37,117 nucleotides of DNA, taken from Promethearchaeota archaeon (GTDB taxonomy: Archaea > Asgardarchaeota > Lokiarchaeia > Sigyniarchaeales > SOKP01). A program made the position numbers and the translations under genes. Positions 5,942 through 29,326 of the stretch are shown in pieces. The first letter of the stretch is position 1, and each line of letters begins with the position of its first letter. Where the stretch lies: NCBI GenBank assembly GCA_016839745.1, contig JAEOTS010000077.1, positions 1 through 37,117 of the forward strand. The letters are read 5' to 3'. The notes under the pieces were generated by a model. The model saw only the letters and a list, made by a program, of their open reading frames with translations. It was not told where the DNA came from and did not search any database.

Positions 5942-6565
5942 TTATAATACTAGATCTTTTTCAAGAGCTTTGGTTATAACTTTCTCAAAGACCTCGTAAG
6001 GTTGAGCTCCAACTACTATCCTATCACCAATTATAAATGTTGGTACACCATTTATCCCGTACTTCCTTAATTCTTTGAGTGATTTCTTTAACTCATTAAA
6101 TGGTTCTTCGCTATCAATATATTCAAGAATTTCCTTCCTCTTAAAACCGAGTGAATCCGCTAAACTCAATAACAAAGTTTGGTCGCCAATATCCGTTCCA
6201 TCTTTCCAATAAGAATCGAACACTAACTTGTGAAACTCGTCAAATTTTCCCATTTTTCTCGCAAATTCCGAAAGATATAATGCCATCCGAGAGTTTGGTA
6301 GCTTATCCGTGAGCTTAAATGAAACGCCAACATCATCAGCAAGTTTTTTTATGTTTGCTTTCATCATTTCTAAATATTCTTTGGGAAAGGGTAAATTCAC
6401 CAATTCAGTGCCTTCTTTTGGTGTTTCAGGATGGATTTCAAAAGGTCGCCACTCAACATCAAGATTATAATTTTTTTTAAGCTGCTCTACGCGATAAAAT
6501 CCGATGTAACAAAACGGACAAATATAATCTGAGAATACTAACATTTTTAACTTTTTTTGACTCAT
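5942..6565 (-). CDS. DsbA/FrnE-family thiol-disulfide oxidoreductase
   Basis: 'FSDYICPFCYIG', cis-Pro motif 'GVPTF', 'GAQPYE'. Confidence 0.92.
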   Translation of the reverse strand: MSQKKLKMLVFSDYICPFCYIGFYRVEQLKKNYNLDVEWRPFEIHPETPKEGTELVNLPFPKEYLEMMKANIKKLADDVGVSFKLTDKLPNSRMALYLSEFARKMGKFDEFHKLVFDSYWKDGTDIGDQTLLLSLADSLGFKRKEILEYIDSEEPFNELKKSLKELRKYGINGVPTFIIGDRIVVGAQPYEVFEKVITKALEKDLVL

Positions 6566-6696
6566 AGTTCACGATTTAGAAGAGAAACCAAGCTTTTATA
6601 ATTTATCGAATTAAAAAATAGGAAATGTATGCAATAAGTCTATCGGAAAAAAACCTGTTCACAAATTGACTTACATTTTAAAAAATCAAGTAAAAG

Positions 6697-6704
6697 TTTA
6701 TATA
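6697..6704 (+). promoter_or_regulatory. Putative archaeal TATA box for the leader ORF/FrhB-TrmB transcript
   Basis: TTTATATA preceded by purine-rich TAAAAG (BRE-like), ~27 nt before the ATG at 6731. Confidence 0.55.
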
Positions 6705-6730
6705 GCCTAATTTGATATTATCTTATAACA

Positions 6731-6817
6731 ATGATCTCAAGTAATACTGCTAAAAGAATACTGGTAAGGGTATTGATATCCTTAAGTATTATTATCTTAG
6801 CAGTATTAATTATATAA
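6731..6817 (+). CDS. Putative 28-aa leader peptide/uORF (MISSNTAKRILVRVLISLSIIILAVLII)
   Basis: Read directly from sequence (below the ORF-track cutoff); 16 of 28 residues are Ile/Leu/Val; ATG sits at the expected transcription start downstream of the TATA box. Confidence 0.5.
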   Translation: MISSNTAKRILVRVLISLSIIILAVLII

Positions 6818-6872
6818 GCGAAACAATTCCGCTTGATCTTTTTTTGTATTTTTTTCGCGGTTTTGTTCGCTT
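6742..6872 (+). promoter_or_regulatory. Two long stem-loops in the 5' leader of the FrhB-TrmB gene
   Basis: Hairpin 1: TAATACTGCTAA (6742-6753)/TTAGCAGTATTA (6797-6808) with inner AATACT/AGTATT and TAAGGGTA/TATCCTTA. Hairpin 2: AAGCGAAACAA..CCGC (6816-6832)/GCGG..TTGTTCGCTT (6857-6872) with T-tracts in the loop and after it. Confidence 0.7.
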
Positions 6873-6969
6873 GAAAAAATTTTTTTTTGAAAAGGTCATT
6901 GGTGGGTTCGCTGCGCTTAAAGCTTGGGTAGATTGAAAATCACGAGAAATAGAAACGGAGAAAATTAAA

Positions 6970-8394
6970 ATGGAAATGAAAAATCAAGTGAAAAATTACC
7001 TACAAACTAACGATCTTGATATCGGATTTCAAGATTTAAATGACTTAGTAATAAATAAGCAAAATTGTGTTTTTTGTGGGTCTTGTATCTCACTATGCCC
7101 GCGAATTGGGATGAACGAAAAGAAACCAAAGCTATTAGAGTATGATCCGGAATGCTCCACTTGTTTTAGGTATTGTCCAAGAACGTACTTTCCAACAGAA
7201 ATGTTTGAAAAAGAATTATTTAATGGTGATGCGAATAAAAGCTATTCAATAGGGCACTATCAAAGGTTAGTTGCTGCAAAAAGTAACGACGAAACTATAT
7301 TGAAGAGAGCTCAGAATGGAGGTGTTGTTTCTTCATTATTAATTCACGCTCTTGATTCAGGATTAATAGACGGAGTTTTACTTACAGATAAAGATGATAA
7401 TTGGTACCCAAAACCAGTAATTGCGAGGAGTTCTGACGAAATATTATCATCTGTTGGTTCCAAATATACGATTTCACCAACATTAATTACTTATAGTGAA
7501 GCTATTAGGGAGTTCAAATTAGAAAAATTAGCATTTGTTGGTGTCCCTTGCCAAATCCATGCTGTAAGAAAATTACAATTATCATCCCCCCTCTCAGACG
7601 AATATGGAAAGTTTAAATTAATTATAGGACTTTACTGTTTCTCAAACTATACCTATGATCTATTAAAAACCTTTGTTCAAGGAGAACTTGGAATACCGTT
7701 AAGTATTGTAAAGAAATTCGATATTTCAAACGGAGAGTTTTATGTGTATTTGAAGGATGATTCGGTTAAACAAGTTCCAATAAAATTGACGAAACAATAC
7801 GCTTGGAATAGCTGTCAATATTGCAAAGACTTTAGTGCTGAATTAGCTGATATATCTATTGGAAGCGTGGGAGCTTTAAGCAATGAGTGGAATAGTGTTT
7901 TATTGCGTACCGATCTTGGAGTAAAAACCTTCAATAGTGCCGTTGAAACTAACAAAATAATTATCTCCGATAAGGTCGATCTATTTAAAATTGAGAAAAC
8001 TGCGTTTAGAAAGAAAACTCGGATCACCCAAATTAATAAAAAGACATTAAACACCATGAGATTGTTAGATATTTCTGAATTCGAAATTAAAACATATACA
8101 ACCCTAATGTCGTTAGGACAAGCAAGTGAATCGTTATTAAGTGAAATTATGAAAGTAGAAGAAAAATTGGTTTTGAGTGTTCTAGAAAGCCTAAAAAAAC
8201 GCGAGTGGGTGATACTAACTAATGGAATGTACAACTGTGTTGACCCATCTTTAGTAATTCGTAACGAGATTAATAATCTTAGGAAAATATTCTTGGAGAA
8301 AATTGGTAAACTCAATAAAGAAGTACTCCCAAATTTAGAAGCAATATTTGTACGAAATAATATTAATCAATTACGGCATAAAAATGAGTTATAA
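6970..8394 (+). CDS. Coenzyme F420 hydrogenase/dehydrogenase beta subunit (FrhB/FdhB family) fused to a C-terminal TrmB-like HTH domain
   Basis: Ferredoxin motifs 'CVFCGSCISLCP' and 'CSTCFRYCP'; FrhB motifs 'AQNGGVVSSLL', 'GSKY', 'VGVPCQ', 'IGLYC', 'CQYCKDFSAELADISIGSVG'; C-terminal 'ISEFEIKTYTTLMSLG...VLSVLESLKKREWV' matches the TrmB wHTH pattern. Confidence 0.85.
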   Translation: MEMKNQVKNYLQTNDLDIGFQDLNDLVINKQNCVFCGSCISLCPRIGMNEKKPKLLEYDPECSTCFRYCPRTYFPTEMFEKELFNGDANKSYSIGHYQRLVAAKSNDETILKRAQNGGVVSSLLIHALDSGLIDGVLLTDKDDNWYPKPVIARSSDEILSSVGSKYTISPTLITYSEAIREFKLEKLAFVGVPCQIHAVRKLQLSSPLSDEYGKFKLIIGLYCFSNYTYDLLKTFVQGELGIPLSIVKKFDISNGEFYVYLKDDSVKQVPIKLTKQYAWNSCQYCKDFSAELADISIGSVGALSNEWNSVLLRTDLGVKTFNSAVETNKIIISDKVDLFKIEKTAFRKKTRITQINKKTLNTMRLLDISEFEIKTYTTLMSLGQASESLLSEIMKVEEKLVLSVLESLKKREWVILTNGMYNCVDPSLVIRNEINNLRKIFLEKIGKLNKEVLPNLEAIFVRNNINQLRHKNEL

Positions 8395-13491: not shown

Positions 13492-14679
13492 CTATTTCAT
13501 ATCTATAAATTTACCCGAGATAAGTAAATTACAGGGCTTTAAATAAGATTTACCTAACTTTTTCGCAGTTTCTTCTAAGAGTTTTTTTAATTGATTATGG
13601 TTTTTAGTAGCATACTTCATTGGGCCCTGAAAATTCATACCTGCTAAAATCACTTCATCAATTATTTTCCAGCCTGATACTAGTCCTTCTTCTAAAATTC
13701 TACATCCCTCATTAGTAGTAATGGCAGTAAAAACTTCACGATTAACTAGCCCTGCCTTTTTTGACAGGTCTGGATTGGGTCTCCCTTTGGACCAATCATA
13801 ATAACCTTGTCCTGTTTTTTTTCCTAATTTTCCTTGTTCTACTTGTTTTGTCAAAACTTTCCCTGGCTTATAGTCAGGAGATAACTTTTCAGCATAATAT
13901 AGTTGAACATTATAAGTTATGTCCAATCCTACAAAATCTGATAATATTAATGCAGACATTGGAGTGTTTGGTCTAGTAAGATCAGCATCTACTTGCTCCC
14001 ATGGAATGCCCTTTTCATAAGCTAAATCAATAATATAGTTAGTATAAATACTACTTGGTGAAAGAACACGATTTAGAATGAAACCTGGCCGATCCTTTAG
14101 CACTCGAACTACGTACCTTTCACCTCTCAAGCAAGGAAGAGATTTCGAAATTTCAACTCCTGTATCCATTGATTTTTGAGAGCTTGTATCTCCTTTAATT
14201 ACTTCAATAAGCCGCATTAATGGAGCGGGATTAGAAAAATGTATTCCAATTACATTATTAGGTTTACCGCAATTCTTGGCGATCTCTGTAATGCTCAGAG
14301 AAGAAGTATTTGAAGCTAATATGCAGTGATCAAGAGAATTATCAATAACCGTTTTACAAATTTTTTGTTTTAGATCCAAATTTTCTGAAACAGCCTCAAT
14401 TACTAAATCTGCATCCTTTACTGCCTCAATAAGATCACTTGTTGTCTTTAACTTAGATAAATAGTCCCCTACACTTAATCCCTCTTGTAATTTTCCTTTT
14501 TTTTTCAGTTTTTCAAATCCGCTTTTTATGTAATCTACTCCTTTATTGAGTATTTCATAGTTTGTATCCACTGCGGAAACATTATAACCTGCCATTAAAC
14601 ATACTTGGGCTATTCCTTTTCCCATATCTCCCAGACCAATTATTACAATATTATTAATATCAATCAATTCTCTCAACAA
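13492..14679 (-). CDS. 3-hydroxyacyl-CoA dehydrogenase (with duplicated C-terminal domain)
   Basis: 'IGLGDMGKGIA', 'IEAVSENLDLK', 'ASNTSSL', catalytic 'GIHFSNP...IE', 'LGKKTGQGYY'. Confidence 0.93.
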   Translation of the reverse strand: MLRELIDINNIVIIGLGDMGKGIAQVCLMAGYNVSAVDTNYEILNKGVDYIKSGFEKLKKKGKLQEGLSVGDYLSKLKTTSDLIEAVKDADLVIEAVSENLDLKQKICKTVIDNSLDHCILASNTSSLSITEIAKNCGKPNNVIGIHFSNPAPLMRLIEVIKGDTSSQKSMDTGVEISKSLPCLRGERYVVRVLKDRPGFILNRVLSPSSIYTNYIIDLAYEKGIPWEQVDADLTRPNTPMSALILSDFVGLDITYNVQLYYAEKLSPDYKPGKVLTKQVEQGKLGKKTGQGYYDWSKGRPNPDLSKKAGLVNREVFTAITTNEGCRILEEGLVSGWKIIDEVILAGMNFQGPMKYATKNHNQLKKLLEETAKKLGKSYLKPCNLLISGKFIDMK

Positions 14680-14706
14680 GTACTTTTTTATATTATAATG
14701 GAAAAG

Positions 14707-16020
14707 TTAAAGAGTTTCAACAACTGTGGCAATACCGACACCAAAACCGCCACACATTAATTGCACACCATATTTTTTATTATTATTCTTCAAATAATGT
14801 ACCATCTCACCAAAATAGATAACTCCGCTAGCTCCAATCGGATGACCTATAGCAATGGCACCTCCTGTAGGATTAATTCTTGGATCATCGAATTCATAAC
14901 CGAATTCTCTAGCAAACGCTAAACAGGGGCTCGCAAAAGCTTCATTAGGTTCTATAACATCCATATCATCTACAGTGAGATCCGCGCGTAACAAAGCCTT
15001 TTTCATGGCAGGAATTGGTGCTAACAACATGATCACAGGATCGTCCCCCGCTACGGCGGTCGAAAGTATTCGAGCCATTGGTTTTAACCCAAGTTCATCT
15101 GCTTTTTCTCGGGACATTAACAAAGTTGCTGCTGCACCATCTACTATTTGCGATGAATTACCAGCTGTTACTTTTCCACCTTTTTCTAAAGGTTTAAACA
15201 CTGGTTTTAATTTACTTATCAGTTCCCATCCTTTCTCTTGATCATCTAAATACACAGAACGCACGGCTTGATCCATCTTAATCGTAACTTGTTCTTCTTT
15301 TTGTTTACCAGTTTCCTCATCTTTAATTGGTTCCATATTCTCATCTGAAAATTTCCTCAAATAGGTAACTGGGACAACTCTTTTATAATATTCTTCTTCC
15401 CTACGCATTGCCATAGTAGCTTTCTGATGACTCCAAACGCTAAATTCATCTAATTCTAGTCGGGTGAAACCATATTTATCATTAACTAATTCTGCTGAAA
15501 CACCTTGAGGTACAACTAATTTCCATTTATTTTTCCATATTGGAGATAAGATTATGGGATACTTCGGAACCTTTTTTATGATTTCTGTATCAATGCCCAT
15601 TGCATAATGTGTCATTGATTCGACTCCAGCTGCTATAAAGATGTCACCATCACCAACTTTTATTGCATTAACCGCAGTATTAATGGCTTGAAGTCCAGAG
15701 TTACAATATCTATTAACTGTCGCACCCGCTATCTCATGAGGCAGATCTGCTAATAGTATTCCCAATCGGGCAATATTTGCTCCTTGTTCTCCCAATTGAC
15801 TCAAGCATCCTACTTGGCAGTCTTCAATTTCCTTAGGATCAAAATCAGGACATTTATTTTTTGTCCGATCTACTACTGCCTTTAAAACTGAAACTAAAAG
15901 GTCTTGAGCTGAGCATTCTCGAAAGACTCCACCAAGTTTTGCCATTTGTGCACGTCCTGATTTTCCAATTGGAGTGCGAATAGCATCAATTACAACACAT
16001 TCTTTTAATTCTTTTCCCAA
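14707..16020 (-). CDS. Thiolase (acetyl-CoA C-acyltransferase)
   Basis: 'RTPIG', catalytic 'NRYCNSG', 'VTAGNSS', 'NEAFA', 'GHPIGASG', 'MCGGFGVG'; TTG start. Confidence 0.95.
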   Translation of the reverse strand: MGKELKECVVIDAIRTPIGKSGRAQMAKLGGVFRECSAQDLLVSVLKAVVDRTKNKCPDFDPKEIEDCQVGCLSQLGEQGANIARLGILLADLPHEIAGATVNRYCNSGLQAINTAVNAIKVGDGDIFIAAGVESMTHYAMGIDTEIIKKVPKYPIILSPIWKNKWKLVVPQGVSAELVNDKYGFTRLELDEFSVWSHQKATMAMRREEEYYKRVVPVTYLRKFSDENMEPIKDEETGKQKEEQVTIKMDQAVRSVYLDDQEKGWELISKLKPVFKPLEKGGKVTAGNSSQIVDGAAATLLMSREKADELGLKPMARILSTAVAGDDPVIMLLAPIPAMKKALLRADLTVDDMDVIEPNEAFASPCLAFAREFGYEFDDPRINPTGGAIAIGHPIGASGVIYFGEMVHYLKNNNKKYGVQLMCGGFGVGIATVVETL

Positions 16021-16078
16021 CTTTCTTCTTACCTTATTTTATTTTTGATCAAAAATTCTATTCATATTAATCAGTTTT

Positions 16079-16543
16079 TCAACTAAAATTGTCACAAAAT
16101 ACAGCGTCCTTAAAAAAATCAGTAATTTTGACTAATTTATTGGTATTCATATTCAATATTAACCTAACTATAATACCTTTTACTAAAAGTGTATCCTCAG
16201 ACTTTGTATTTTTATAACAGTTAATTGCAAATGTAATTGAAGTAGTCCCAACTTTCAAAAGACGCGTATAAAGTAAAATAGTGTCCCCAAATGTTGCCGA
16301 CTTTATATATTCAATCTCGACTTTTCTCACGGGAAATACAATACCTTGTTTATGCAATTCTCCACAATTTTTTTTGAGTTTTTGAGTAAAGCTAATAAAC
16401 GCATCGTCAAAATAGTTGAGATATTTATTTGAATGCACAACCTGCATTAAATCTGTATCATCTACACGAACTTCTATTTCTTTATAGTCCTCAGTTCCCA
16501 TTAATTTATCGATGATCTCTTTCTCTTCTTCTCTAATTATCAT
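16079..16543 (-). CDS. Hotdog-fold acyl-CoA thioesterase (4HBT/YbgC family)
   Basis: 'VRVDDTDLMQVVHSNKYLNYFD', 'IEYIKSATFGD'. Confidence 0.9.
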   Translation of the reverse strand: MIIREEEKEIIDKLMGTEDYKEIEVRVDDTDLMQVVHSNKYLNYFDDAFISFTQKLKKNCGELHKQGIVFPVRKVEIEYIKSATFGDTILLYTRLLKVGTTSITFAINCYKNTKSEDTLLVKGIIVRLILNMNTNKLVKITDFFKDAVFCDNFS

Positions 16544-16574
16544 TATAACCTTACTACTTCTCTTCTAATGATCG

Positions 16575-17450
16575 TTATATTTTCGTGTTTAGAATTAATA
16601 TTTTTTTTGTCTCATCCGTAGTTGCGACTTTGCGACCAACCATTTCTACCAATTTAGTTGCCCATTGAACTTGTTCAAAACTTCCTTTTGCTAAATCACC
16701 ATTTGGCATTCTAATGTTATCTTCTAAACCAACTCGAATATGACCTCCTTCGATCACTCCACAAGTATTAGCCTTAAATTGATCTTTCGCGATTCCACAA
16801 ACACACCAAGTAGCGTTAGAAGGTGATATTGCTCTGTAATGGGCAAGATTTTGAATATTGAAAGGTGCACCTCCCACAACTCCAAACACATATTGAAAGT
16901 GCATCGGTTCAGAAAAAACTTGATACTGTTTTTGAATATATAATATATTATATAACCCTAGTTCACTAAATACCTCGATTTCAGGTCGAATACCAAGCCT
17001 TTTAGTAACTCGCGCCATTCGTATCATTGTATGAAAGGTGTTAAAATATTCACCTTCATACATGATTTTTTTTGTAATTGGATTTATATTTACCCAATTC
17101 ATAGTCTGCGTATCAATAGAGCAAAGTTCTGGTTGTATGAGTTTAATTGGTGCTAATCTTTCTTTATCAGTTGTTCCAGTTCCTCCAGTAATATTAATTA
17201 TTATTTCAGGACATGAGGTTTTTATTGCCTTTATTATTGCTTCATATCTTTTAGGATCTTGGGTAACTAATCCATCATCTGTTCGTGCATGAATATGGAC
17301 AATTGAAGCTCCTGCTTCATAACATTTTAATGATTCTTCAGCGTATTCTGCTGGAGTGTATGGAACATTTGGATTTTGTTCTTTTAGAGTCGTTGCACCA
17401 ACTAAAGCAGCAGTTATTATTGTCCTATTTAATAAATCTTCATTTGTCAT
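16575..17450 (-). CDS. Beta-keto acid cleavage enzyme (BKACE, DUF849/Kce family)
   Basis: 'IITAALVGA', 'PYTPAE', Zn ligands 'HIHAR', 'PEIEVF', 'GGHIRVGLEDN'. Confidence 0.93.
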   Translation of the reverse strand: MTNEDLLNRTIITAALVGATTLKEQNPNVPYTPAEYAEESLKCYEAGASIVHIHARTDDGLVTQDPKRYEAIIKAIKTSCPEIIINITGGTGTTDKERLAPIKLIQPELCSIDTQTMNWVNINPITKKIMYEGEYFNTFHTMIRMARVTKRLGIRPEIEVFSELGLYNILYIQKQYQVFSEPMHFQYVFGVVGGAPFNIQNLAHYRAISPSNATWCVCGIAKDQFKANTCGVIEGGHIRVGLEDNIRMPNGDLAKGSFEQVQWATKLVEMVGRKVATTDETKKILILNTKI

Positions 17451-17472
17451 TTTTATTTCCCCATTTAAATAA

Positions 17473-17892
17473 TCATTTTAGGATTTCTTCAAGTTCTTCA
17501 AATATAATTTCTGTTGCTTGTCCAAATCGAGCAAGATCTTCTAAATTTCCTTTAACATTTAATTCTCCTTTAAGATAATCTTGTTTCATATCAATCAATC
17601 TTAAAAAAATTTTAATGAATTTTTCTTTTGCCATAGTTAATGTTAATTTAGTTTCAGATGTACTACCGAACCCAAATGAAAATTTTGCATTGGCAATTTT
17701 AATCCAAATTGGTTCATGGTCTAATAAATGAACTTGAATTATGCAATCCCAATCTTTTACTTCTTCTTGAACATCTATATAAGTATTGGCTATCTTTACG
17801 ATAACCTTAAGAAAGTCTACAAGATTTATTTTGTTCAAATAACCATCTTTAATCAATTTTTTTAATTCATTCATTTTATTTCTCTCTTTCAA
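17473..17892 (-). CDS. SCP2 sterol/lipid-carrier domain protein
   Basis: 'LTLTM...DYLKGELNVKGNLEDLARF' SCP2 signature; likely ATG start at 17874. Confidence 0.8.
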   Translation of the reverse strand: MKERNKMNELKKLIKDGYLNKINLVDFLKVIVKIANTYIDVQEEVKDWDCIIQVHLLDHEPIWIKIANAKFSFGFGSTSETKLTLTMAKEKFIKIFLRLIDMKQDYLKGELNVKGNLEDLARFGQATEIIFEELEEILK

Positions 17893-17918
17893 CTTTTTGA
17901 GTTGAAAATTACATTATT

Positions 17919-19322
17919 TCACTTTTTATGAAACAAATATCTGCCTATAAGTACCGATATTTTACTTTTATCCTTATTTACAAAAAATTCTATATTTGTT
18001 TTCTCCATAGACCTATCAAAGGTATAAAATCTCAATTCTCTTAACTTCTCATCATATGGGATGAGAGGTGTGCTTTTTGGGAGAACATACTGAGATTTTT
18101 CATCTGGTTCAAAGTAGAGCATTCCCTCCTTTCTAACTATTTGTCCTTTTAGCATGCCTCTATATGTTTCATAATTTCCCACAAGGGATGCATATTTCAT
18201 ATCAATAGTCTTGGGAAAAAAAACTTTCTCAGGGTTTCTGCCAAGAATTACTGCTGACAAGATAAAAGGGATCAAATATGCAACAGGCTCACCCGTTCCC
18301 GAATTTGTAAGTGTAGAAATTCCTACCTTTTTTTCGGGGATAAAAAGCATATTTGAACTAGAAACGCTTGTATTGCCAGAATGAAATACCAATTTTGTGT
18401 TGCAAAAATTTTCAATTAGAAATACACCATATCCATATCCCTCAATTATTGGTTCATCTGTCATCATTTGAATAATTGGTGTATTTATATGAATCGTGGT
18501 CATTTTCGCTATCAGTTCACTACTAAGTATATCCTTATCTTTGTACTTCCCATTATTATTGAGCAATTCTAAAAAATGCAAGACTTCAAGACTACTACTT
18601 AATAATCCACCAGAACCGTGGATCAATTCACTGAATGGATGGGATTTTTCTACTCCTTCTAAATAAGCCGTCATTTTATCAATATCTGCTTCGAATATCT
18701 CTCTTTTAAAAGTACTTCTTTTCATTTCTAAAGGATACAGAATCTCTTGCTGAATAAAGTCTTCATACTTTATTTTAGAAACCTTTTCGATTATCCTTTG
18801 TAAAATAGTATACCCATCATTAAAGTAGATCCATTTTTTGCCAGGTGGGTAGCATCGTTCTTTAGTAGCATTATTAATGTGATCCTGCCAATCATCCCAA
18901 TTATTTATTTGAATGTCTGTGAATTCAGTTCCTAGCGCTTTTGTAATAGCAATATAGCTTCCTAAAAGTGCAGGCAAACCAGAAGAGTGCGAGAGTAAAT
19001 GATGTACAGTTATTTCTTCATCTCCTATCTTAAATTCAACATATTTCGATACTGGATCGTTTAGATTAATTTTTCCTTCTTGGACTAATAACATTATTGC
19101 TAATGCTGTAAAAGTTTTAGTTGCGGAGCCAATTCCTATTAAAGTATCATTTGTCATAGGTGATTTAGATTTTTTATCTCTATATCCATAACTTTTTTGT
19201 AGAATGATATCACTTTCATTCGATACAGCAACGCTTATTCCTGGAACCTTAAACATTTCCATAAGTTCCTTAACTATTCCATCAAAAACACTTAAAAACT
19301 CATTTGAAAAATAATTTGACAT
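17919..19322 (-). CDS. Beta-lactamase-fold serine hydrolase (AmpC/CubicO, Pab87-like peptidase)
   Basis: SxxK 'GSATK', 'LLSHSSG', YxN 'YFN', 'FHSG'; extra C-terminal beta domain. Confidence 0.9.
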   Translation of the reverse strand: MSNYFSNEFLSVFDGIVKELMEMFKVPGISVAVSNESDIILQKSYGYRDKKSKSPMTNDTLIGIGSATKTFTALAIMLLVQEGKINLNDPVSKYVEFKIGDEEITVHHLLSHSSGLPALLGSYIAITKALGTEFTDIQINNWDDWQDHINNATKERCYPPGKKWIYFNDGYTILQRIIEKVSKIKYEDFIQQEILYPLEMKRSTFKREIFEADIDKMTAYLEGVEKSHPFSELIHGSGGLLSSSLEVLHFLELLNNNGKYKDKDILSSELIAKMTTIHINTPIIQMMTDEPIIEGYGYGVFLIENFCNTKLVFHSGNTSVSSSNMLFIPEKKVGISTLTNSGTGEPVAYLIPFILSAVILGRNPEKVFFPKTIDMKYASLVGNYETYRGMLKGQIVRKEGMLYFEPDEKSQYVLPKSTPLIPYDEKLRELRFYTFDRSMEKTNIEFFVNKDKSKISVLIGRYLFHKK

Positions 19323-19334
19323 AATTTTTCCTCC

Positions 19335-20399
19335 CTATTTGTTAGATTTAAAAAAATGTATAAATTCCGATTTTTCCCTTTTTGGGGGAAAAATCGTCAA
19401 TTCGATTTGATTAGAAATTTTAAAACATGAAGTACACAAAGTACCGCCTGTTATTTCACCTATATTTGGTAAATTTACTGTTGTGCCCTTTCTAAATATT
19501 TGCTCATCTGAAATTAGCTCAAGAGCACTATTTGTATTAAATCGAACATCCTTCAAAAGTTCAATGCCCCGATTATACCTTATTTGTGTAGTCGAATTCT
19601 CTTCTAAAGAGGGAATATGTACATCACTGAATTTTGGGCTAAGATAATGATTAGTATGGAAAAATTTATCTTTAATTTCGGTCAACTCTGCTCTACTACT
19701 CGTATATTCGAGATTTATAGCGCGAAATTCCTTCTGCGAAACAATATTATGATTAAATCCAGCATTCCTCTCTTTTTTCAGAATAATTGATTTAACGTGT
19801 TCTATAGAATCTGCCTCACATAAAGCGCGATCATTTAATATACGAGGAAGCCCCGGTTTTTGTTCAGGGTGCGGCACATCATTTCCACTAAATACTATTC
19901 CATTAGAATTAAATCCGAATGCGTTTCCCGGTAAAGATCCTGGATAACAAAAACAAATGATATTTAACCCACTTAAAGTTTCAATATCGCAGATGTAAGA
20001 ATATTTTCCAGTTTCATGTATCATATCTTCATTATGTAAAAGTAAAATTTCTTTTTCAGATTTCAAGATTAAAGTAGAGCAAGATTCAAGTTCTAGTGAT
20101 GCCATCCAGTTCAATTTTAAGATATCTTCTAAAACTAAATCTGCACCCTCAGATAATCCCTTTAATTCTTCCATATATTCAGGATAGAATTTATTGGCAA
20201 AAGTGTTCATCTTCCCTAACCAACTTGGTTTTAATACTTCAAAGTATTTCAAACCTAACTGTATTAGATTTTCCTTAATAGCAGCATGAATATACTCTTT
20301 TGCTTGAGTCCCGATGGAGTAACCAATCTCGTAATTAGTCCCTTTAGCCTTAAATACTGGTAAATAATTTTCAACATCTAAAAATTTAATAAATTTCAC
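19335..20399 (-). CDS. Peptidase C45 family Ntn hydrolase (isopenicillin-N acyltransferase/Tan-like)
   Basis: 'GTNYEIGYSIG', 'EELKGLSEG', autocleavage 'ES|CST', 'HNED', 'HTNHY'; GTG start. Confidence 0.88.
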   Translation of the reverse strand: MKFIKFLDVENYLPVFKAKGTNYEIGYSIGTQAKEYIHAAIKENLIQLGLKYFEVLKPSWLGKMNTFANKFYPEYMEELKGLSEGADLVLEDILKLNWMASLELESCSTLILKSEKEILLLHNEDMIHETGKYSYICDIETLSGLNIICFCYPGSLPGNAFGFNSNGIVFSGNDVPHPEQKPGLPRILNDRALCEADSIEHVKSIILKKERNAGFNHNIVSQKEFRAINLEYTSSRAELTEIKDKFFHTNHYLSPKFSDVHIPSLEENSTTQIRYNRGIELLKDVRFNTNSALELISDEQIFRKGTTVNLPNIGEITGGTLCTSCFKISNQIELTIFPPKREKSEFIHFFKSNK

Positions 20400-20423
20400 A
20401 CCACATTCATTAATTAGTTATTT

Positions 20424-21359
20424 TTAAGGGCGTTTTACCAAGTGAGAATAAATTTCTGGTCTTCTGTCCTTTAAAGTGTTATAAACAAACGATCTCACCT
20501 TATTAAGTTCCTTTCTAGTAATAATTGTTGAGATCAGATATTCATCAATTTTATCATTTGGACTTTCTGCAATTAATTTTCCATCTGGTCCAAAAATTAA
20601 CACCCCTCCAGATAAAAAATATTCCATGGGACCAAGATCATCTAAACTCACTCTTGTAGACCACTGTTCTCCTTTTTCTACACGGTAATCTTTAATATGA
20701 CCAGCACCAACACAAGCTATACTATATACAACATTAGCTCGAGCAGCGGACTGTAAATCGATGCTTACACTCCTTTTCCAATCTTTAATCGCTTTTTCTT
20801 CTGCATTTTTAACACCAGTCTTGAAAGGAGTAAAACCGAATGCATAAGGACTTAGTATTATATCGCATCCTTGGGTAGCATAACAGCGATATACTTCTGG
20901 AAATGAATTATCATAGCATATCGCAATTCCAACTTTAAAACCTCCAATAGTAAATACAGGAAAATGATTACCTACCCCCCAGGTAAAATTCTCGGGAAAG
21001 GGGGAATGTGTTTTGCGATAGTAGCCTATAATTCCTTCTGTGCCAATTAAAATATGTGTATTAAAGATTGAATTACTATATTCTTCTGCTAACCCTACCG
21101 CAACAAATATTCCTCCAATCTTAACAATTTCATCAATTAAATGTTTAATTGAATCTCCACCAATAGGTTCAGCTGCTGAAATTAGTTCTCGCGAATTCCA
21201 ATATCCCGTAATATTCAATTCAGGAAATAATAAGAGTTCTATCTCTTGTTCTTTTGCTTTTTTAATCCATGAAATTGTGTTTTTAACGTTCTCTTCTGGA
21301 TCTCCAGGAAGACTTTTCATGGAAACTGCACCGATTTTTAACTTTGAATCATTTTTCAT
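20424..21359 (-). CDS. Carbon-nitrogen hydrolase (nitrilase superfamily amidase)
   Basis: E-K-C triad: 'FPEL', 'YRKTH', 'ICYD'; C-terminal 'DRRPEIY'. Confidence 0.92.
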   Translation of the reverse strand: MKNDSKLKIGAVSMKSLPGDPEENVKNTISWIKKAKEQEIELLLFPELNITGYWNSRELISAAEPIGGDSIKHLIDEIVKIGGIFVAVGLAEEYSNSIFNTHILIGTEGIIGYYRKTHSPFPENFTWGVGNHFPVFTIGGFKVGIAICYDNSFPEVYRCYATQGCDIILSPYAFGFTPFKTGVKNAEEKAIKDWKRSVSIDLQSAARANVVYSIACVGAGHIKDYRVEKGEQWSTRVSLDDLGPMEYFLSGGVLIFGPDGKLIAESPNDKIDEYLISTIITRKELNKVRSFVYNTLKDRRPEIYSHLVKRP

Positions 21360-21383
21360 TCTCTATTCTCCTAATCTATGTTC

Positions 21384-22775
21384 TTATATAAATCCATGTT
21401 CCTTTTCAGTATTATATAAACTTTTTTCGAAAATAGACAAAATTTCATCAATTTGTTCTTTATTTACTCTAAAATAGGGGCCTAACATAATCATATCCCC
21501 ATCATAGATCCCTTTTGCGCACCCAGAATGAGCCAACAGAAGTAAATGGTTCTTTTTTGCTTCTTTTTTTAATTGGAGATGAAAAGCATTTGGTCTTCCT
21601 ACTGTTGGGGGAGCAATTAATGGGTGATCAATTGTCTCCTTAGTAGTTTTATCGCGAACAAATTCAATTCCCATTAGCAATCCTTTTCCACGAACATCTC
21701 CCATTGTTGGATGTTCTTTTTGGATTTTTTTCACTTCATCAAACATATATTTACCCATATTTTCAACATTTGCTATAAGATTATGTTTCTGGTAATAATC
21801 TATCGTTTTTGAAATTACAGTAGCCACCATAGGATTATTTGCCCATGTATAACCTGCGGGGAGGACTCCCTGCACATCCGCTATTTTATTATAAATCTTT
21901 AACGAAGACATTATTGCTCCTGCAGGAAAATAACCTCCTGCTAATCCTTTTCCCAAAACGAGAATGTCGGGAGGAGTCTTAAAATGCTCATATCCGAACC
22001 ATTTACCAGTTCTTCCAGATCCAGATATAATTTCGTCATAAATAAGAAGAATGTCGTACTTATCACAAATCTCTCTAACTCTCTTAAAATAATCTTCACG
22101 CGGTACTGCTGCACATAATCCTGTGCCAGAAATAGGTTCTGCTATAAAAGCAGAAACGTTTTCATGTCCCTGCCCTAATATCTCATCTTCTAATGCTTGA
22201 GCACATTCTAAATTACATGAGTTTGGTTCTTTATTAAACCAACAGCGATAACAGTACGCAGGTGGTATATGGCTAGTATTATGAAGATATGGTATGAAAG
22301 CAGCTCTTCTCTTAACAAACCCTCCAGCTGATAATGTAATCATTGTATTTCCATGATAGGATTGCCATCTTCCAATAATGAGGGTTTTTGTAAGATTATT
22401 ATTATAAATATGGTACATACGTGCCATCTTAATTGCAACCTCAACTGCTTCAGAGCCACCGCACACTAGTAAAGCTTTACTCATTTCATCATGAGTCAGG
22501 TTGCATAGTTTTTGACAAGTTTCCTTTAAAATTGGAGTGTGTCCATAGCCTCTATGAAGGAACGCAAGATTTTTCATCTGTTTTTCTAAAAAAATCCCAA
22601 AATCTGGCAAACCATGTCCAAGACTATTTGTAACGGGACCGCAAGTCGTATCGATAAATTTATTTCCTTGGTCATCAAAAAGATACATTCCCTCTCCTCG
22701 CGTAAAAGTGGGATATCTTTCTCCAGGAAATTCATCAAAAATATAATTTTCCACTATTTCTTCACTATTTTTCAT
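21384..22775 (-). CDS. Class III PLP-dependent aminotransferase (omega/beta-transaminase-like)
   Basis: 'GGSEAVE', 'SYHGNT', 'IAEPI', 'DEIISGSGRTG', PLP Lys in 'LGKGLAGG'. Confidence 0.94.
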   Translation of the reverse strand: MKNSEEIVENYIFDEFPGERYPTFTRGEGMYLFDDQGNKFIDTTCGPVTNSLGHGLPDFGIFLEKQMKNLAFLHRGYGHTPILKETCQKLCNLTHDEMSKALLVCGGSEAVEVAIKMARMYHIYNNNLTKTLIIGRWQSYHGNTMITLSAGGFVKRRAAFIPYLHNTSHIPPAYCYRCWFNKEPNSCNLECAQALEDEILGQGHENVSAFIAEPISGTGLCAAVPREDYFKRVREICDKYDILLIYDEIISGSGRTGKWFGYEHFKTPPDILVLGKGLAGGYFPAGAIMSSLKIYNKIADVQGVLPAGYTWANNPMVATVISKTIDYYQKHNLIANVENMGKYMFDEVKKIQKEHPTMGDVRGKGLLMGIEFVRDKTTKETIDHPLIAPPTVGRPNAFHLQLKKEAKKNHLLLLAHSGCAKGIYDGDMIMLGPYFRVNKEQIDEILSIFEKSLYNTEKEHGFI

Positions 22776-22796
22776 CTCTTTTTCTACTCCTTATTA

Positions 22797-23474
22797 TTAA
22801 AATGATGGATTGTATGTTGCGTTTTTGAATAAAAAATCTTTAATTGTTTTTAACGCATAAGCACGATAATCTTCTCTTAGAATTAATTTTGCATTACCAT
22901 TATTAATTGGATCAATAACCTTCGCTTTAAATTTCAAATGGGTTTCTGCTTTAATCGCTCCAAACATCATTGCCCAAAGATGATACGTGAATAGATCAAT
23001 ATCATCCACTTGGAGTTCACCATTATCTATCGCTGCTTGAATAACTTCCTTTTGATAAAAAAATCCATGTTTTAAATCATAAGAATCTTCAATTGGGCCA
23101 GAACTTTTGGATGGTGGAATCATAGCTACGAATAAAAATAAAAACATTGGAAAATCTTCCCCCATTTTATCAATAATTGCCTTTGTTATTTTGTATATTA
23201 ACTCTAGATTAGTTCCATCATGATTTTCAATGATGGAATCAATAATTTTATCATGTTCTTTTCTATAACTTGATCTTACTGCAATCCATAACTCCCTTTT
23301 ACTTTTGAAATAATTATAAAGATTTGACATCTCCATATTCAAACCTTTTGCTAGAGAGTTCATACTTATGGTTTGAAAATCACTTCTTTTATACATCTCT
23401 TTCGCAGTTTCTATAATTTTTTGAAATTGAGCTTGTTTTTTTTCAGGTGCTCTGGCTCGAGTCTTTTTTCCCAT
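22797..23474 (-). CDS. TetR/AcrR family transcriptional regulator
   Basis: 'IIETAKEMY...ISMNSLAKGLNM...NLYNYFKSKREL' HTH. Confidence 0.9.
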   Translation of the reverse strand: MGKKTRARAPEKKQAQFQKIIETAKEMYKRSDFQTISMNSLAKGLNMEMSNLYNYFKSKRELWIAVRSSYRKEHDKIIDSIIENHDGTNLELIYKITKAIIDKMGEDFPMFLFLFVAMIPPSKSSGPIEDSYDLKHGFFYQKEVIQAAIDNGELQVDDIDLFTYHLWAMMFGAIKAETHLKFKAKVIDPINNGNAKLILREDYRAYALKTIKDFLFKNATYNPSF

Positions 23475-23530
23475 TTTTTTCCACTTCTTTTGTCATTTAA
23501 TTAGGATTTTTAAGATATAAATTTGAATTT

Positions 23531-24838
23531 TTATTTATCACATAAACTAAGATGGTTATCACTTAATTGTACATAATTTGGAATTTTAATTGTACATAAA
23601 TTATTTTTTGTAGATTTAAAACAGCGAGGATGAAATTTACATCCAGCAGGGGGGTTTATAGCACTAGGAACTTCCCCTTCTAAAATAATACGATTTTTTT
23701 CAGTATCCTCAAAGAAGTCCGTTCTTGCAGATAATAAAGCTTGAGTATAGGGATGATGTGGATTAGAAAAAATCTCTTCGGTTTTTCCTACTTCTACAAA
23801 ATCCCCTAAATACATTACAGCTATTTTATCGGCTATGTTGGAAACCACTGCTAAATTATGAGTAATAAATATAAACGCATAATTGAAGGCTTTTTGAAGA
23901 TTTTTTAATATATTGAGAATTTTTGCTTGTACTGATACATCCAATGCCGAAGTAGGCTCATCTAATACTATTAAATAGGGATTACAAATTAGAGAGCGAG
24001 CATTTATAATTCTTTGTTTTTGCCCACCCGAAAATTCATGTGGAAAGCGATCTAGATGTTCAAGTTTCAATGATACCCTTTCTAGTGCTTCTAATACTTT
24101 TTTTCTTAGAATCTTTTTATTAGTTATCCCAAAAAGATTACGGAGTGGTTCAGAAATTATATCTACTACCTTCATTCGAGGATTAAGCGAGGCTTCCAAA
24201 TCTTGGAATACCATTTGAATTCTCCGTCTCATTTCTCTTGGAAATTTCAAACCGATGGTTTTTTCTTCAAAAATAATTACTCCACTCTTTCTAGGAATTA
24301 ATCCTAATATAGTCCGTGCAACAGTTGATTTTCCACATCCACTTTCTCCAACTATTCCAAATGTTTCCCCCGTCTTAAGCTTAAAAGAAATTCCATCAAC
24401 TGCTTTAACTTCGGCAATTGTTTTTTTAAAAAGACCTCCATAGATAGGGAAACTCACTTTTAAATCTCTAACCTCCAAAATCGTCTGATTTGGTTTAATA
24501 TTAAAATTATCTATAAATTCAGGGAATTTAATTACACGAAAAGATACTATTTTTGTTAATATCCCCATTACTAGAATAATTATTATTAAAGTGGGATATA
24601 CCCACTGAATGATTTGAATGAAATTACTCCATGATAATAAAAATATAACGACTAGAAAAGAAATTCCTGAAAAACTTGTGATTGATATATTTAACCATAA
24701 TCCTCTTTTTGATAATATTTGAGTTTTATCTCCTATATTAGATATAAAAATTGCGATACCTATCGTAAGTGCTATTGCTAATAGAAAAAAGAACACAGAA
24801 CTTATAATTGGAGATATTATTATTGCCATCAGATTCAC
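23531..24838 (-). CDS. oppF: Oligopeptide ABC transporter ATPase (OppF/DppF) with ~3 N-terminal TM helices
   Basis: Walker A 'GESGCGKST', 'FSGGQKQR', Walker B 'IVLDEPT', C-terminal 'HPYT...GCKFHPRC'; first ~100 aa hydrophobic. Confidence 0.9.
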   Translation of the reverse strand: MNLMAIIISPIISSVFFFLLAIALTIGIAIFISNIGDKTQILSKRGLWLNISITSFSGISFLVVIFLLSWSNFIQIIQWVYPTLIIIILVMGILTKIVSFRVIKFPEFIDNFNIKPNQTILEVRDLKVSFPIYGGLFKKTIAEVKAVDGISFKLKTGETFGIVGESGCGKSTVARTILGLIPRKSGVIIFEEKTIGLKFPREMRRRIQMVFQDLEASLNPRMKVVDIISEPLRNLFGITNKKILRKKVLEALERVSLKLEHLDRFPHEFSGGQKQRIINARSLICNPYLIVLDEPTSALDVSVQAKILNILKNLQKAFNYAFIFITHNLAVVSNIADKIAVMYLGDFVEVGKTEEIFSNPHHPYTQALLSARTDFFEDTEKNRIILEGEVPSAINPPAGCKFHPRCFKSTKNNLCTIKIPNYVQLSDNHLSLCDK

Positions 24839-24847
24839 TTTTTTAAT

Positions 24848-26791
24848 TTAATTACCATTAATTTGAAATTCGTTTTTATTATAGAGATGACACGCAACAA
24901 AATGGTTTGGTGTATATTCGATTAATTCTGGAGAATCATTTATACAATATTTACTTGAATAATCACACCGGGGATGAAAGTGGCAACCTTTAGGAAGATA
25001 TATTAGATTAGGGACAACTCCCGGGATTTCAGGAAAATCCTCTTTAGATTTTCCTACTCTAGGAATTGTTGAGATTAAACCTTTAGTATAAGGATGTAAA
25101 GGTTCTCTTTTTAGGTCTTCCAAAGAGCTATATTCCATTATTTTCCCGCTATACATCACTGCAACGTGATCACACATTTCTGAGATAATTCCAAGATCAT
25201 GGGTAATTAATAAGATAGATGTTTGATACTTTTTTTGAAGTTCCTTTATTAATCTTAAGATCTGAGCTTGAATTGTTACATCTAATGCCGTTGTGGGTTC
25301 GTCTGCTAACAACAGTTGAGGATTACAAATTAATGCCATTGCGATCATTATCCTTTGTCTCATCCCCCCGCTTAATTCATGAGGATATCTATTTATTATT
25401 TGTGCGGGGTCGGGAATACCTACTGCTTTAATCATATCTATCGATTTACTTTCAGCAATAGCAAATATTGAACTTAAAGCTTTAAGCTGTTGTATTTTTT
25501 TCAATTTTATATTATTCTCTTTACTGTTTTCATCTTTTTGCAATTTAACTTTCAAAATTTCTATTTCTTCTTCAATTCTGGCTATTTCGGCAATATTGTG
25601 TCTTAAAACCCGTTCTAATTCCTCTTTTTGATGAGTAATGTAAACCTCCGATAATTGATCTCCCACTCGGTAAACTGGATTTAAAGAATTTAATGGGTCT
25701 TGAAAAATCATAGCGATTTTCTTCCCACGATAGTTCAACATTTCTTTCTCTGATTTTTCTAATAAATCTTCGTCATAAAATAAAACATGCCCTCCTTCAA
25801 TTTCACCAGGAGAAGAAATTAATCCCATAACGGATAAAGCGGTAACAGATTTACCACATCCAGTCTCTCCAACTAATCCTAAAATTTTATTTTCATGCAT
25901 TTTAAAAGATACGCCATCAACAGCTTTGACAACACCCTCTTCCGTATAAAAGTAAGTTTTCAAATTTTTTACTTCAAGAATGATTTTTTCCTGATCACTT
26001 CCCGACAAATTGGAATCCCTAATAAGTTCTTCCCCGATTTTTGAAATTCTTTTTTCCTTTTTTGTTATTAATCTTAATGATAATAATAACCCAAGAAAGT
26101 AAATCACCATTAAAATCCAATATAATTGTAAATTTACAAATATATAAAATCCAAAAAGGAAACCAAATAACCCAAATATTGTGAGATATAAGGCCCAAAT
26201 TCCATATGAAGAAATTACACTTAATATTATTGCTTGTTTTAATATATAGGATTGAATTTTTTTCTTTTTTGGTAGAACTTTGTTAATAAGACGAGTTATT
26301 ATTACTACAAAAATCTCTACGAATATTGACCAGATTAGTCCATATTGGAATTCAATATATATCGGAATTGAGAAAATTCGGATCGTTAATTCGATGATTG
26401 CCAACATTGCAACTACGACTGAAATTAACAGAAAAGGTCTAAAAACATATTTAAAAGTCAATTTACTGCTTTCTTGCCTATCGTCAAGATTTTTTTGTTT
26501 AATAAATCTATGAAATAGTAGATTTATAAAATTAAGAGTCAGCCAGCTAGTTGAAAATAAGATTAAATTATATGAACTTAGTGATAAGTTAATAGATGAT
26601 AATAATACTCCCACACCAAATTCAGCAGAAAATCCAATAATAATACTTAGATACAACTTCCGTAGTAAAAGCTTATTACCAGGCTTCTTATTAGCTGGAA
26701 ATAATGCGTTTACTCCTAAAATAAAGACAAGCATGGTAATTATGTGAAAAATCAAAATCACGGTGAGATACCCAATATCCTCTAAAATCAT
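24848..26791 (-). CDS. oppD: Oligopeptide ABC transporter ATPase (OppD/DppD) with ~7 N-terminal TM helices and a coiled-coil insert
   Basis: 'GETGCGKS', 'LSGGMRQR', 'LLADEPTTALDVTIQAQI', 'GCHFHPRC'; first ~245 aa polytopic. Confidence 0.9.
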   Translation of the reverse strand: MILEDIGYLTVILIFHIITMLVFILGVNALFPANKKPGNKLLLRKLYLSIIIGFSAEFGVGVLLSSINLSLSSYNLILFSTSWLTLNFINLLFHRFIKQKNLDDRQESSKLTFKYVFRPFLLISVVVAMLAIIELTIRIFSIPIYIEFQYGLIWSIFVEIFVVIITRLINKVLPKKKKIQSYILKQAIILSVISSYGIWALYLTIFGLFGFLFGFYIFVNLQLYWILMVIYFLGLLLSLRLITKKEKRISKIGEELIRDSNLSGSDQEKIILEVKNLKTYFYTEEGVVKAVDGVSFKMHENKILGLVGETGCGKSVTALSVMGLISSPGEIEGGHVLFYDEDLLEKSEKEMLNYRGKKIAMIFQDPLNSLNPVYRVGDQLSEVYITHQKEELERVLRHNIAEIARIEEEIEILKVKLQKDENSKENNIKLKKIQQLKALSSIFAIAESKSIDMIKAVGIPDPAQIINRYPHELSGGMRQRIMIAMALICNPQLLLADEPTTALDVTIQAQILRLIKELQKKYQTSILLITHDLGIISEMCDHVAVMYSGKIMEYSSLEDLKREPLHPYTKGLISTIPRVGKSKEDFPEIPGVVPNLIYLPKGCHFHPRCDYSSKYCINDSPELIEYTPNHFVACHLYNKNEFQINGN

Positions 26792-27795
26792 CTTAATTTT
26801 CTCCTTTTTCTAGTAGCTTTTAATCGAGGATCTAATGCATCCCGTAAACCATCTCCTATTAGCATAAAACCTAAAACTGTAATAAATATCATTAATCCTG
26901 GCCAAAAACTAGCCCATGGCGCGGAATATAATCGCAATCTCCCCGCATTAATATCTACACCCCATTCAATTGTGTTGGGATCCCCTAACCCAAGAAAACT
27001 TAGCCCCGCTAATCCTAATATGATACCACCATAATCAAAGGAGATAGCGATAATGATAGGAGAAATAACATTGGGAAGGATATATTTAAACATAATTTTA
27101 AAATTATTCGCACCAGTCACTTTAGCGGCTTCTATAAACACTCCTTCTTTTATCTGTAATACTGATCCCCGAATTAATCGTGCATATCCTGGAATTCCTA
27201 AAATTCCGAACGCGATTAAAATAATATTAATATTTTGACCAAAAATTGAAATAAAAATAAATACTATAATTAAAGTTGGAAATGCTAAAAGAATATCAAA
27301 TATTCTCATAACAATTGAATCTGGAATACCGCCTATATAAGCAGAAATTATTCCTATTATGACACCCCCAATGACGCTTACTAATATCGCTATGGACCCT
27401 AAAGTTAAGGAAGTTACAGCTCCCCAAATTATTCTCCCTAACACATCACGACCAAGGAGAGTCTGCCCTAATGGATGTTCCAAGGAAGGAGGAGAAAAAC
27501 TTCCTTCAAATGTATATTCCGCTAACTCCTTATAGGAAAAAGGAGTTAACCAAGAAGAGAAGACTGCCATTGAGGTAATAAATATTATAATACCAAATCC
27601 TAAGATCGTAATTGGATTCAGGAGTTTTCTGAAAAATTTCCTTTGAGATTTAAATTGGTTAACATTTGCTTCCCATTGAGACAATTCCTGAGGTCTATAA
27701 AATGGAATTATTAGGAATTTGAGATATCGTAATATTTTCCGTTTGAAGTTTATTTCTTTTTGAGGAAATTCGAAGTCGTATTTAATTTGGCTCAT
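26788..27795 (-). CDS. oppC: Oligopeptide ABC transporter permease OppC/DppC
   Basis: 'HPLGQTLLGRDVL', EAA loop 'FIEAAKVTGA', 'LSFLGLG', 'GDGLRDALDPR'. Confidence 0.93.
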   Translation of the reverse strand: MSQIKYDFEFPQKEINFKRKILRYLKFLIIPFYRPQELSQWEANVNQFKSQRKFFRKLLNPITILGFGIIIFITSMAVFSSWLTPFSYKELAEYTFEGSFSPPSLEHPLGQTLLGRDVLGRIIWGAVTSLTLGSIAILVSVIGGVIIGIISAYIGGIPDSIVMRIFDILLAFPTLIIVFIFISIFGQNINIILIAFGILGIPGYARLIRGSVLQIKEGVFIEAAKVTGANNFKIMFKYILPNVISPIIIAISFDYGGIILGLAGLSFLGLGDPNTIEWGVDINAGRLRLYSAPWASFWPGLMIFITVLGFMLIGDGLRDALDPRLKATRKRRKLR

Positions 27796-27815
27796 ACAAG
27801 TTTAATACCTCGTTA

Positions 27816-28859: not shown

Positions 28860-28918
28860 TTTTGACCATCTTCTCTTTTTTTTTTAATTATATCGTAATA
28901 TAGTCAATATAATGAGGT

Positions 28919-28987
28919 AAAAAAATAAATTATAAGATCTAATTTATTTTTTAATTACTAGTTATCATTTATTGATTTATAAATGTT
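28919..28987 (-). repeat. Left arm of 69-bp perfect inverted repeat; contains the putative oppB-operon TATA box (28976-28983) and operator-like palindrome (28920-28952)
   Basis: Exact reverse complement of 29220-29288, checked base by base. Confidence 0.95.
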
Positions 28988-29219
28988 ATTACACAATTAT
29001 TTTTGAAAAGAACTCTTCAGAACCAAAGAACTAGAAAGACAGGATTATTCTTTTGACAAGAAACAGCAATTACTAGTTGCTAGGAAAAACAAAAAAATAA
29101 GTTTTTCACTAAAAATATTGATTATTAATATAGAATTGCATTATTCTACCTATGCCATATTCTAAAGACCTTACAAATCCCCAAAACATATATAATTCTC
29201 AGAATCAATATTCGGCGAA

Positions 29220-29288: not shown

Positions 29289-29326
29289 TTAAAATTTGCA
29301 AAATAAACTTTTTAAAGTGGTAAAAA

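Follow-up and report, generated by a model that had tools for sequence, protein, structure and literature searches.

The stretch at 6697-6969 of the window (the whole analysed stretch of 37,117 nucleotides of a Promethearchaeota genome) is, on balance, the 5′ leader of a gene for an FrhB-TrmB protein. The leader seems to belong to a family confined to one taxonomic family of Promethearchaeota (Lokiarchaeia-type), an assignment that is rather likely together with the whole explanation offered here. The window leader would be a leader-peptide attenuator-like switch reading the supply of isoleucine, valine and leucine, a reading that is favoured with some reserve. The arrangement exceeds chance, because the leader fold has a z-score of -3.9 on the plus strand (0/200 shuffles equally good) and recurs at 137 loci of relatives. 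The features are compiled in Table 1.

Table 1. Features of the FrhB-TrmB leader and its main gene in the window.
Feature	Position	Strand	Basis and remarks
TATA-like box TTTATATA	6697..6704	+	sequence; begins 34 nt 5′ of ATG 6731
Leader sORF, 28 codons, MISSNTAKRILVRVLISLSIIILAVLII	6731..6817	+	open reading frame; equivalents in family
P1 hairpin within sORF	6742..6808	+	outer stem 6742-6753 with 6797-6808, plus inner stems
Candidate regulatory tail ATT ATT ATC TTA GCA GTA TTA ATT ATA (I I I L A V L I I)	6788..6814	+	sequence
P2 hairpin	6816..6872	+	5′ arm AAGCGAAACAATTCCGC 6816-6832 with 3′ arm GCGGTTTTGTTCGCTT 6857-6872
P2 loop tracts T7 and T7	6839-6845, 6849-6855	+	sequence
T9 tract	6880..6888	+	sequence; 7 nt 3′ of P2
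P3 3′ strand GAAAAGGTCATTGGTGGGTTCGCT	6889..6912	+	pairs with 6816-6845 (P2 5′ arm and first half of P2 loop)
GGAG, likely Shine-Dalgarno of main gene (putative role)	6957..6960	+	sequence; outside conserved structures
FrhB-TrmB gene	6970..8394	+	Pfam FrhB_FdhB_N, FrhB_FdhB_C and TrmB, all above cut-off

The preliminary description of this DNA had listed a TATA box, a short open reading frame (sORF) rich in branched-chain residues, two hairpins, T-tracts and a main gene some 150 nt downstream. All of these were recovered in place, with one correction: the loop tracts described as T8 and T7 are both T7. The TATA box is at its proposed position and its spacing is conserved across the family. The distance of 34 nt to the ATG is the modal spacing among family leaders, a TATA-like hexamer is present in 98/136 distinct elements, mostly 34 nt 5′ of the ATG, and an A/T box stands at constant distance in an alignment of 30 relatives. 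From the TATA-like box, a start site about 4 nt before the sORF ATG is predicted, and the transcript would be near-leaderless. Ile, Leu and Val indeed make up 15 of the last 19 sORF residues. The hairpin inside the sORF (P1) has a perfect outer stem of 12 bp together with inner stems, and the outer stem joins codons 4-8 to the tail codons. The second hairpin (P2) begins at the sORF stop codon, with the second base of the codon as the start of its 5′ arm, and the T9 tract follows it. The second partner suggested at 6907-6912 also exists: TTCGCT pairs with AAGCGA in the minimum-energy fold, as part of a longer helix, P3. The main ATG lies 152 nt after the sORF stop. At the gathering score, the window had no Rfam match, the T-box family RF00230 included, and 6650-7000 had none up to E=10. 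The best Rfam candidates, mir-84 and Thr_leader (opposite strand), were far below threshold.

The main gene codes for a protein with a ferredoxin-like 4Fe-4S region at its start, FrhB domains and a C-terminal TrmB helix-turn-helix. FrhB stands for the F420 hydrogenase/dehydrogenase beta-like domain. The protein is FrhB-like in NCBIfam, below the equivalog cut-off, and its architecture points to a putative redox-sensing transcription regulator. The five closest orthologues retain the entire leader. For the paralogues (52-56% identity), the one upstream region checked (L009) does not align with the leader. Divergent from the leader lies a gene for a DsbA-like thioredoxin-fold protein (5942-6565, minus strand), retained upstream in the closest relatives only. 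The leader travels with the downstream gene, because distant FrhB-TrmB loci have other upstream neighbours. Minus-strand genes at 13492-31147 encode a 3-hydroxyacyl-CoA dehydrogenase, a thiolase, a Pab87-type beta-lactamase-fold peptidase, a class III aminotransferase and two Opp/Dpp-type ABC ATPases, and the plus strand of the same region encodes a family 5 solute-binding protein. These neighbours of the FrhB-TrmB gene serve peptide uptake and amino-acid or acyl-CoA catabolism.

A covariance model, R1, was built from the last sORF codons, P2 and the downstream box. It matched 101 of the 135 genomes of the same Promethearchaeota taxonomic family, with 1-3 copies per genome, and 0/19 genomes of three sister families in the order. 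At the DNA level, a search of the taxonomic family detected the core of about 190 nt, at 68-89% identity, in many genomes beyond those of the five closest orthologues. The named relatives with the element are Promethearchaeota/Promethearchaeia MAGs. In total, 137 elements were collected; 133 distinct copies entered the reading frame test and 136 distinct elements the motif counts. Upstream neighbours differ between loci, and the downstream gene is co-oriented and lies 40-100 nt past the element. The genome of the window holds three copies of the family. Two diverged tandem copies are on its contig C108 (805-876 and 1438-1518), with the tails AIIPTVL and LLLVVVVVVL. Each precedes a small acidic ORF (1017-1211 and 1652-1831; 64 or 59 aa) without a Pfam match. 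This small-ORF family carries the motif (L/F)DY…P(A/G)E and follows most Val-tailed leaders in relatives.

The reading frame of the sORF is open in 133/133 distinct copies; the other two frames are open in 0 and 10. The sORFs have lengths of 20-32 codons with indels in multiples of three. Their stop codon has a fixed position in the R1 model, at the foot of P2. A comparison of orthologous leaders had been proposed as a check on the reading frame and its codon bias: 18/18 FrhB-TrmB leaders have an sORF with an Ile/Val/Leu tail.

Tail composition follows the downstream gene, with few phylogenetically independent contrasts. Before leucyl-tRNA synthetases (LeuRS; 74 loci of archaeal type 1, archaeal type 2 and bacterial type), the tail is Leu-dominant in 74/74 cases, and the last 8 residues contain on average 5.3 Leu and 0.01 Ile. 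The FrhB-TrmB loci (18, in two separated clades, window included) have Ile-dominant tails in 17/18 cases, the window among them, and their last 8 residues comprise on average 3.5 Ile, 2.0 Val and 1.7 Leu. At 34 loci, the leader stands before a small acidic ORF of 45-78 aa (no Pfam match in ten tested), and its tail is Val-dominant in 19, Leu-dominant in 12 and Ile-dominant in 3. A single acyl-CoA dehydrogenase locus has the tail VVVVDVVVVLL, with 7 Val among the last 10 residues, and a single branched-chain aminotransferase locus (BCAT, above the NCBIfam cut-off) has IAIDVIVAAALVL, a mixture of I/V/A/L. The tail codons are cognate to the gene in the leaders of LeuRS (Leu), acyl-CoA dehydrogenase (Val) and BCAT (mixed); the window gene has an Ile-rich tail. 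To our knowledge, neither the FrhB-TrmB protein nor the small acidic ORFs are tied to branched-chain amino acids. A tree of the backbone after the stop codon places the Leu-tailed leaders of bacterial-type LeuRS as the sister group (SH-aLRT 92) of Val-tailed leaders that precede small ORFs in the same genus. The backbone was thus shared, and the tail changed together with the gene. Of independent contrasts between tail and gene, well-supported branches provide 1-2 and all branches together no more than 7; none contradicts the trend, and the sign test is powerless. The genome is AT-rich and T-rich codons are common, which counts against a codon gauge.

Other synthetase genes were inspected as well. 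A simple sORF scan of 25 regions upstream of ValRS found no comparable sORF. Some 410-450 nt upstream of ValRS (L229, L241, L249), a conserved short frame ends in …KILMTIVV, …KILKIIVV or …KVLMIIGV; it is probably the C-terminus of the preceding gene and not a leader. The bacterial-type LeuRS of the window's own genome (contig C68) has no R1 leader. About 250 nt 5′ of this LeuRS (L063), a GC-rich hairpin, GCCCGCCTTCCAAGCGGGTGG, followed by T11 stands in AT-rich surroundings; a terminator is one possible reading, the 3′ end of an unannotated RNA another. In one genus (g22; L202, L219, L215), three genomes have a second IleRS (about 955-967 aa) with an unrelated leader to which R1 is blind. This leader has a TATA box and a short stretch on the 5′ side, GTGGATGTGGA, for which CCTCCACATCC downstream is a possible partner. 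Its 23-codon sORF ends in ATT ATT ATT ATC (…ISTIIII). Competing hairpins follow, TTCACTT/AAGTGAA versus TGAAGT/ACTTCA. The IleRS leader is an independent parallel to the leader family of the window.

The family retains the folds of the window leader. P1 is present in the minimum-energy fold of 134/137 leaders (median z -3.5). Whole-leader RNAalifold recovered P2 alone; P1 is out of register between subfamilies and was therefore tested sequence by sequence. A compensatory change replaces ACUGC/GCAGU (Thr-Ala with Ala-Val) by ACUAC/GUAGU (Thr-Thr with Val-Val). For P2, 100 distinct sequences gave 93% paired cells, 12 of the 14 pairs changed on both sides, and none of 500 shuffles equalled the covariation, with slid controls far lower; the alignment was fitted to the covariance model and is hence biased toward structure. 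Diverged copies form the same P2 helix despite quite different arm sequences. The search for covarying stems in relatives, advised in the preliminary description, was thus positive for both P1 and P2.

P3 competes with P2 for the same strand. Two segments make up its 5′ partner, namely the 5′ arm of P2 and the loop's 5′ half, where the motif CUUUUUC is found; its 3′ strand lies 20-25 nt past P2 in the family. The column-wise count was dropped for P3 owing to the register problem, and a duplex-energy test was used instead. Family-wide, the P3 duplex has a median of -16.2 kcal/mol (z -4.0), compared with -8.4 for a control stretch. Folds of the full leader contain P3 in 104/137 cases, P2 in 24/137 and both in none. 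Ten representative leaders were cut before the P3 3′ strand, and 10/10 folded as P1 and P2. Because of this difference between truncated and full leaders, P2 is regarded as the early kinetic fold and P3 as the late thermodynamic fold, pseudoknots aside. In the models, P2 and P3 are mutually exclusive; the length of the ribosome footprint suggests that the choice would depend on the ribosome. The two helices might instead combine as a pseudoknot, a structure that the folding programs used cannot display. The pair AAGCGAA/TTCGCT was considered as a separate third hairpin and rejected: it is the outer end of P3 in the window's clade, and this form is not retained in LeuRS leaders. The downstream GGTGG box is not universal. 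It changes in divergent copies jointly with the top of P2 and is therefore seen as P3 pairing, not as a fixed motif.

Such a structured leader could act as an RNA-only cis-regulator, in which P1, P2 and P3 bind a protein, a tRNA or a small ligand and the sORF is tolerated or merely unfolds the RNA. The leader folds are strongly structured, sequence conservation in the P2 arms and in the loop motif CUUUUUC exceeds what pairing requires, and UGGU within the GGTGG box of the window could in principle pair with the ACCA end of a tRNA. A regulator of this kind is nevertheless unlikely. It fails to explain the 133/133 open frames, the in-frame indels and the fixed stop, and equally the switching of Leu, Ile and Val tails with the downstream gene. 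The GGTGG box behaves as P3 pairing, and no Rfam family, T-box included, was matched.

The U-tracts bear on the output of the leader. Oligo-T/oligo-U tracts suffice as archaeal termination signals, and U-rich nascent RNA is the substrate of the cleavage factor aCPSF1/FttA. In 116/136 distinct elements, the P2 loop contains a T5+ tract; one after P2, as the T9 of the window, is found in only 15/136. The hairpin-plus-U-tract terminator suggested by the preliminary description is consequently not conserved, and T9 past P2 is ruled out as a family terminator. The T9 of the window copy itself is a possible archaeal terminator signal. Family leaders showed no U-tract 3′ of P3, and a bacterial-type intrinsic terminator (a hairpin directly followed by a U-tract) was not seen in the family as an alternative fold. 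The classical terminator/antiterminator logic is not directly mappable, because the conserved U-tract is inside the P2 loop. As oligo-U alone suffices for archaeal termination, an archaeal equivalent of the terminator would be possible.

The position of the tract also invites a translation-coupled leader that is not specific for an amino acid. Translation of the sORF would then simply open structures or keep the ribosome behind the polymerase at the U-tract. The sORF stop is about 21 nt before the T5+ tract, where a terminating ribosome would abut a paused polymerase, and the same backbone precedes FrhB-TrmB genes and small acidic ORFs without a known branched-chain link. Unspecific coupling does not, however, predict codon runs that depend on the gene (Leu before all LeuRS with Ile near 0, Val before the acyl-CoA dehydrogenase), nor the separate IIII-tailed leader of IleRS. 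It is considered quite improbable.

The preliminary description had offered a membrane peptide as an alternative to attenuation, which would be a functional small hydrophobic peptide (a membrane micropeptide or toxin-like) with its own 3′ end and a U-tract terminator, and with a separate promoter for the main gene. The window tail has 19 mostly hydrophobic residues after basic ones, like a membrane anchor, and the tracts T7, T7 and T9 follow the sORF, where oligo-T alone could terminate. The family data weaken this alternative and make it very unlikely. Variation in the central part of the sORF is spread about evenly over the three codon positions; therefore, the peptide sequence itself is not conserved and not under selection at the protein level. 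A membrane helix would be longer and less charged than many of the tails, which have only 7-8 hydrophobic residues between flanking Asp, Glu or Gln; SLVDLLAVLLLS and LLQALLQLLL are examples. Conservation of hydrophobicity alone, with Phe and Met freely substituted, had been named as an outcome in favour of a membrane peptide. Phe and Met are nearly excluded from the tails: they account for 1.2% and 0.2% of the hydrophobic tail residues, whereas the corresponding shares in the window's membrane ORFs are 19% and 6%. This near-absence favours a codon gauge over a membrane peptide. The A-V-L part of the tail is dictated by the pairing of P1, a point against the gauge. Every element has a gene in the same orientation downstream of it, the tail follows that gene, and no conserved second promoter was found between P3 and the main ATG across contexts. 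A mobile repeat or MITE is ruled out, as the leader DNA is unique in the genome by BLAST and R1 finds just two more, diverged copies there, each before a gene.

The leader family is probably an amino-acid gauge read by the ribosome. We infer the translation of the sORF, the stalling, the transcript shared with the main gene, the output step and its sign. Transcription would begin a few bases before ATG 6731, and a ribosome would translate the 28-codon sORF. The last nine codons (Ile, Leu and Val with one Ala) would form the 3′ arm of P1, and the stop would provide the first base pair of P2. With too little charged Ile-, Val- or Leu-tRNA, the ribosome would stall on the tail and cover the P2 foot, which would become free once a ribosome completes the sORF and departs. 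The ribosome of Haloferax protects 16 nt counted from the first base of the P-site (PMC7261190). By this measure, the P2 arm past the stop would be hidden over 4-7 nt when a ribosome waits on one of the last two tail codons, and over about 10 nt when it stands at the stop codon. Two outcomes would be open to the P2 5′ strand. Pairing with the near partner would give P2, the kinetic product, whose loop exposes the U-tracts; pairing with the distant strand at 6889-6912 would give P3, which would be thermodynamically favoured and has the first U-tract paired. After a prompt exit of the ribosome, P2 would form as soon as its 3′ arm is made. A lingering ribosome would block P2 until the P3 strand exists, and the more stable P3 would form. 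The choice between P2 and P3 would set the amount of transcript or translation reaching the main gene.

The most likely output is transcription termination or cleavage at the U-tracts, because archaeal polymerases stop at oligo-U and aCPSF1/FttA acts on U-rich RNA. The analogy to pheST and the requirements of a LeuRS gene suggest that expression is switched on by stalling. The opposite sign is possible: a closely trailing ribosome may carry the polymerase over the U-tract, which would suit catabolic genes. The proposal of ribosome-stalling attenuation in the preliminary description is much strengthened by the comparative data; its terminator model and a tie of FrhB-TrmB to branched-chain amino acids stay hypothetical.

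Asgard archaea live on peptides and amino acids, and the leader family offers a way to study amino-acid sensing in them. With more than 130 members and tails matched to LeuRS, it is a system for the interplay of archaeal polymerase, U-tract termination or cleavage factors and the trailing ribosome. The leaders link the FrhB-TrmB regulator and the small acidic proteins to the Ile/Val status, a lead on their roles. They also demonstrate that sORFs of less than 30 codons, which gene callers skip, can be the best-conserved part of an archaeal leader.

Ribosome-mediated attenuation is a textbook bacterial mechanism that relies on coupled transcription and translation. The preliminary description had regarded it as not established in archaea, and a full-text literature search, with subscription journals sparsely covered, gave no archaeal case. 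E. coli has leader-peptide attenuators for ilvGMEDA (ilvL), ilvBN (ivbL), leu (leuL) and pheST (pheM). The leaders described here share with them a short ORF, rich in cognate codons in the LeuRS, acyl-CoA dehydrogenase and BCAT leaders and thus also before a synthetase gene as in pheM-pheST, and an ORF end that overlaps strands with two exclusive pairings. The mixed tail of the window, with Ile > Val > Leu, resembles the multivalent leader of ilvGMEDA. In contrast to the E. coli attenuators, the leaders are archaeal and near-leaderless, and the regulatory codons are the last nine, directly against the stop. They also have no conserved hairpin-plus-U-tract terminator, and they possess an extra hairpin, P1, through which the beginning of the ORF is joined to its tail. 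They are unrelated in sequence to the E. coli attenuators, and none of the Rfam leader families was matched.

T-box riboswitches of Bacillota bind uncharged tRNA directly and need no ORF. They resemble the leaders in the amino-acid-specific cis control of synthetase genes by alternative helices. They differ in that the most conserved feature here is a translated-looking ORF, and no T-box was matched. In the pyrBI leader of E. coli, which senses UTP and has a classical terminator, a U-rich pause tract and the trailing ribosome decide on hairpin formation. This parallel concerns geometry only; the signal of pyrBI is UTP and not an aminoacyl-tRNA.

A further likeness is with mycobacteria, where polycysteine leaderless sORFs are reported to act as attenuators at many loci with one signal, a 'ribulon' (Canestrari et al., bioRxiv 10.1101/834739). 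Both systems have leaderless sORFs and runs of codons for a single amino acid, and in mycobacteria a stalled ribosome blocks an RNA duplex, as it would here. The leaders presented here have the main start 50-70 nt past the conserved structures and not visibly in them, would sense other amino acids and belong to another domain of life. The chances are about even that the leaders form an Asgard 'ribulon', with leaderless sORFs of Leu, Ile or Val runs and a P2/P3 switch around an archaeal U-tract signal. Its targets would be LeuRS, the second IleRS, BCAT, acyl-CoA dehydrogenase, the redox-type regulator of the window and the small acidic proteins. If this holds, Archaea would have their first case of leader-peptide attenuation, and it would lie in the lineage closest to eukaryotes.
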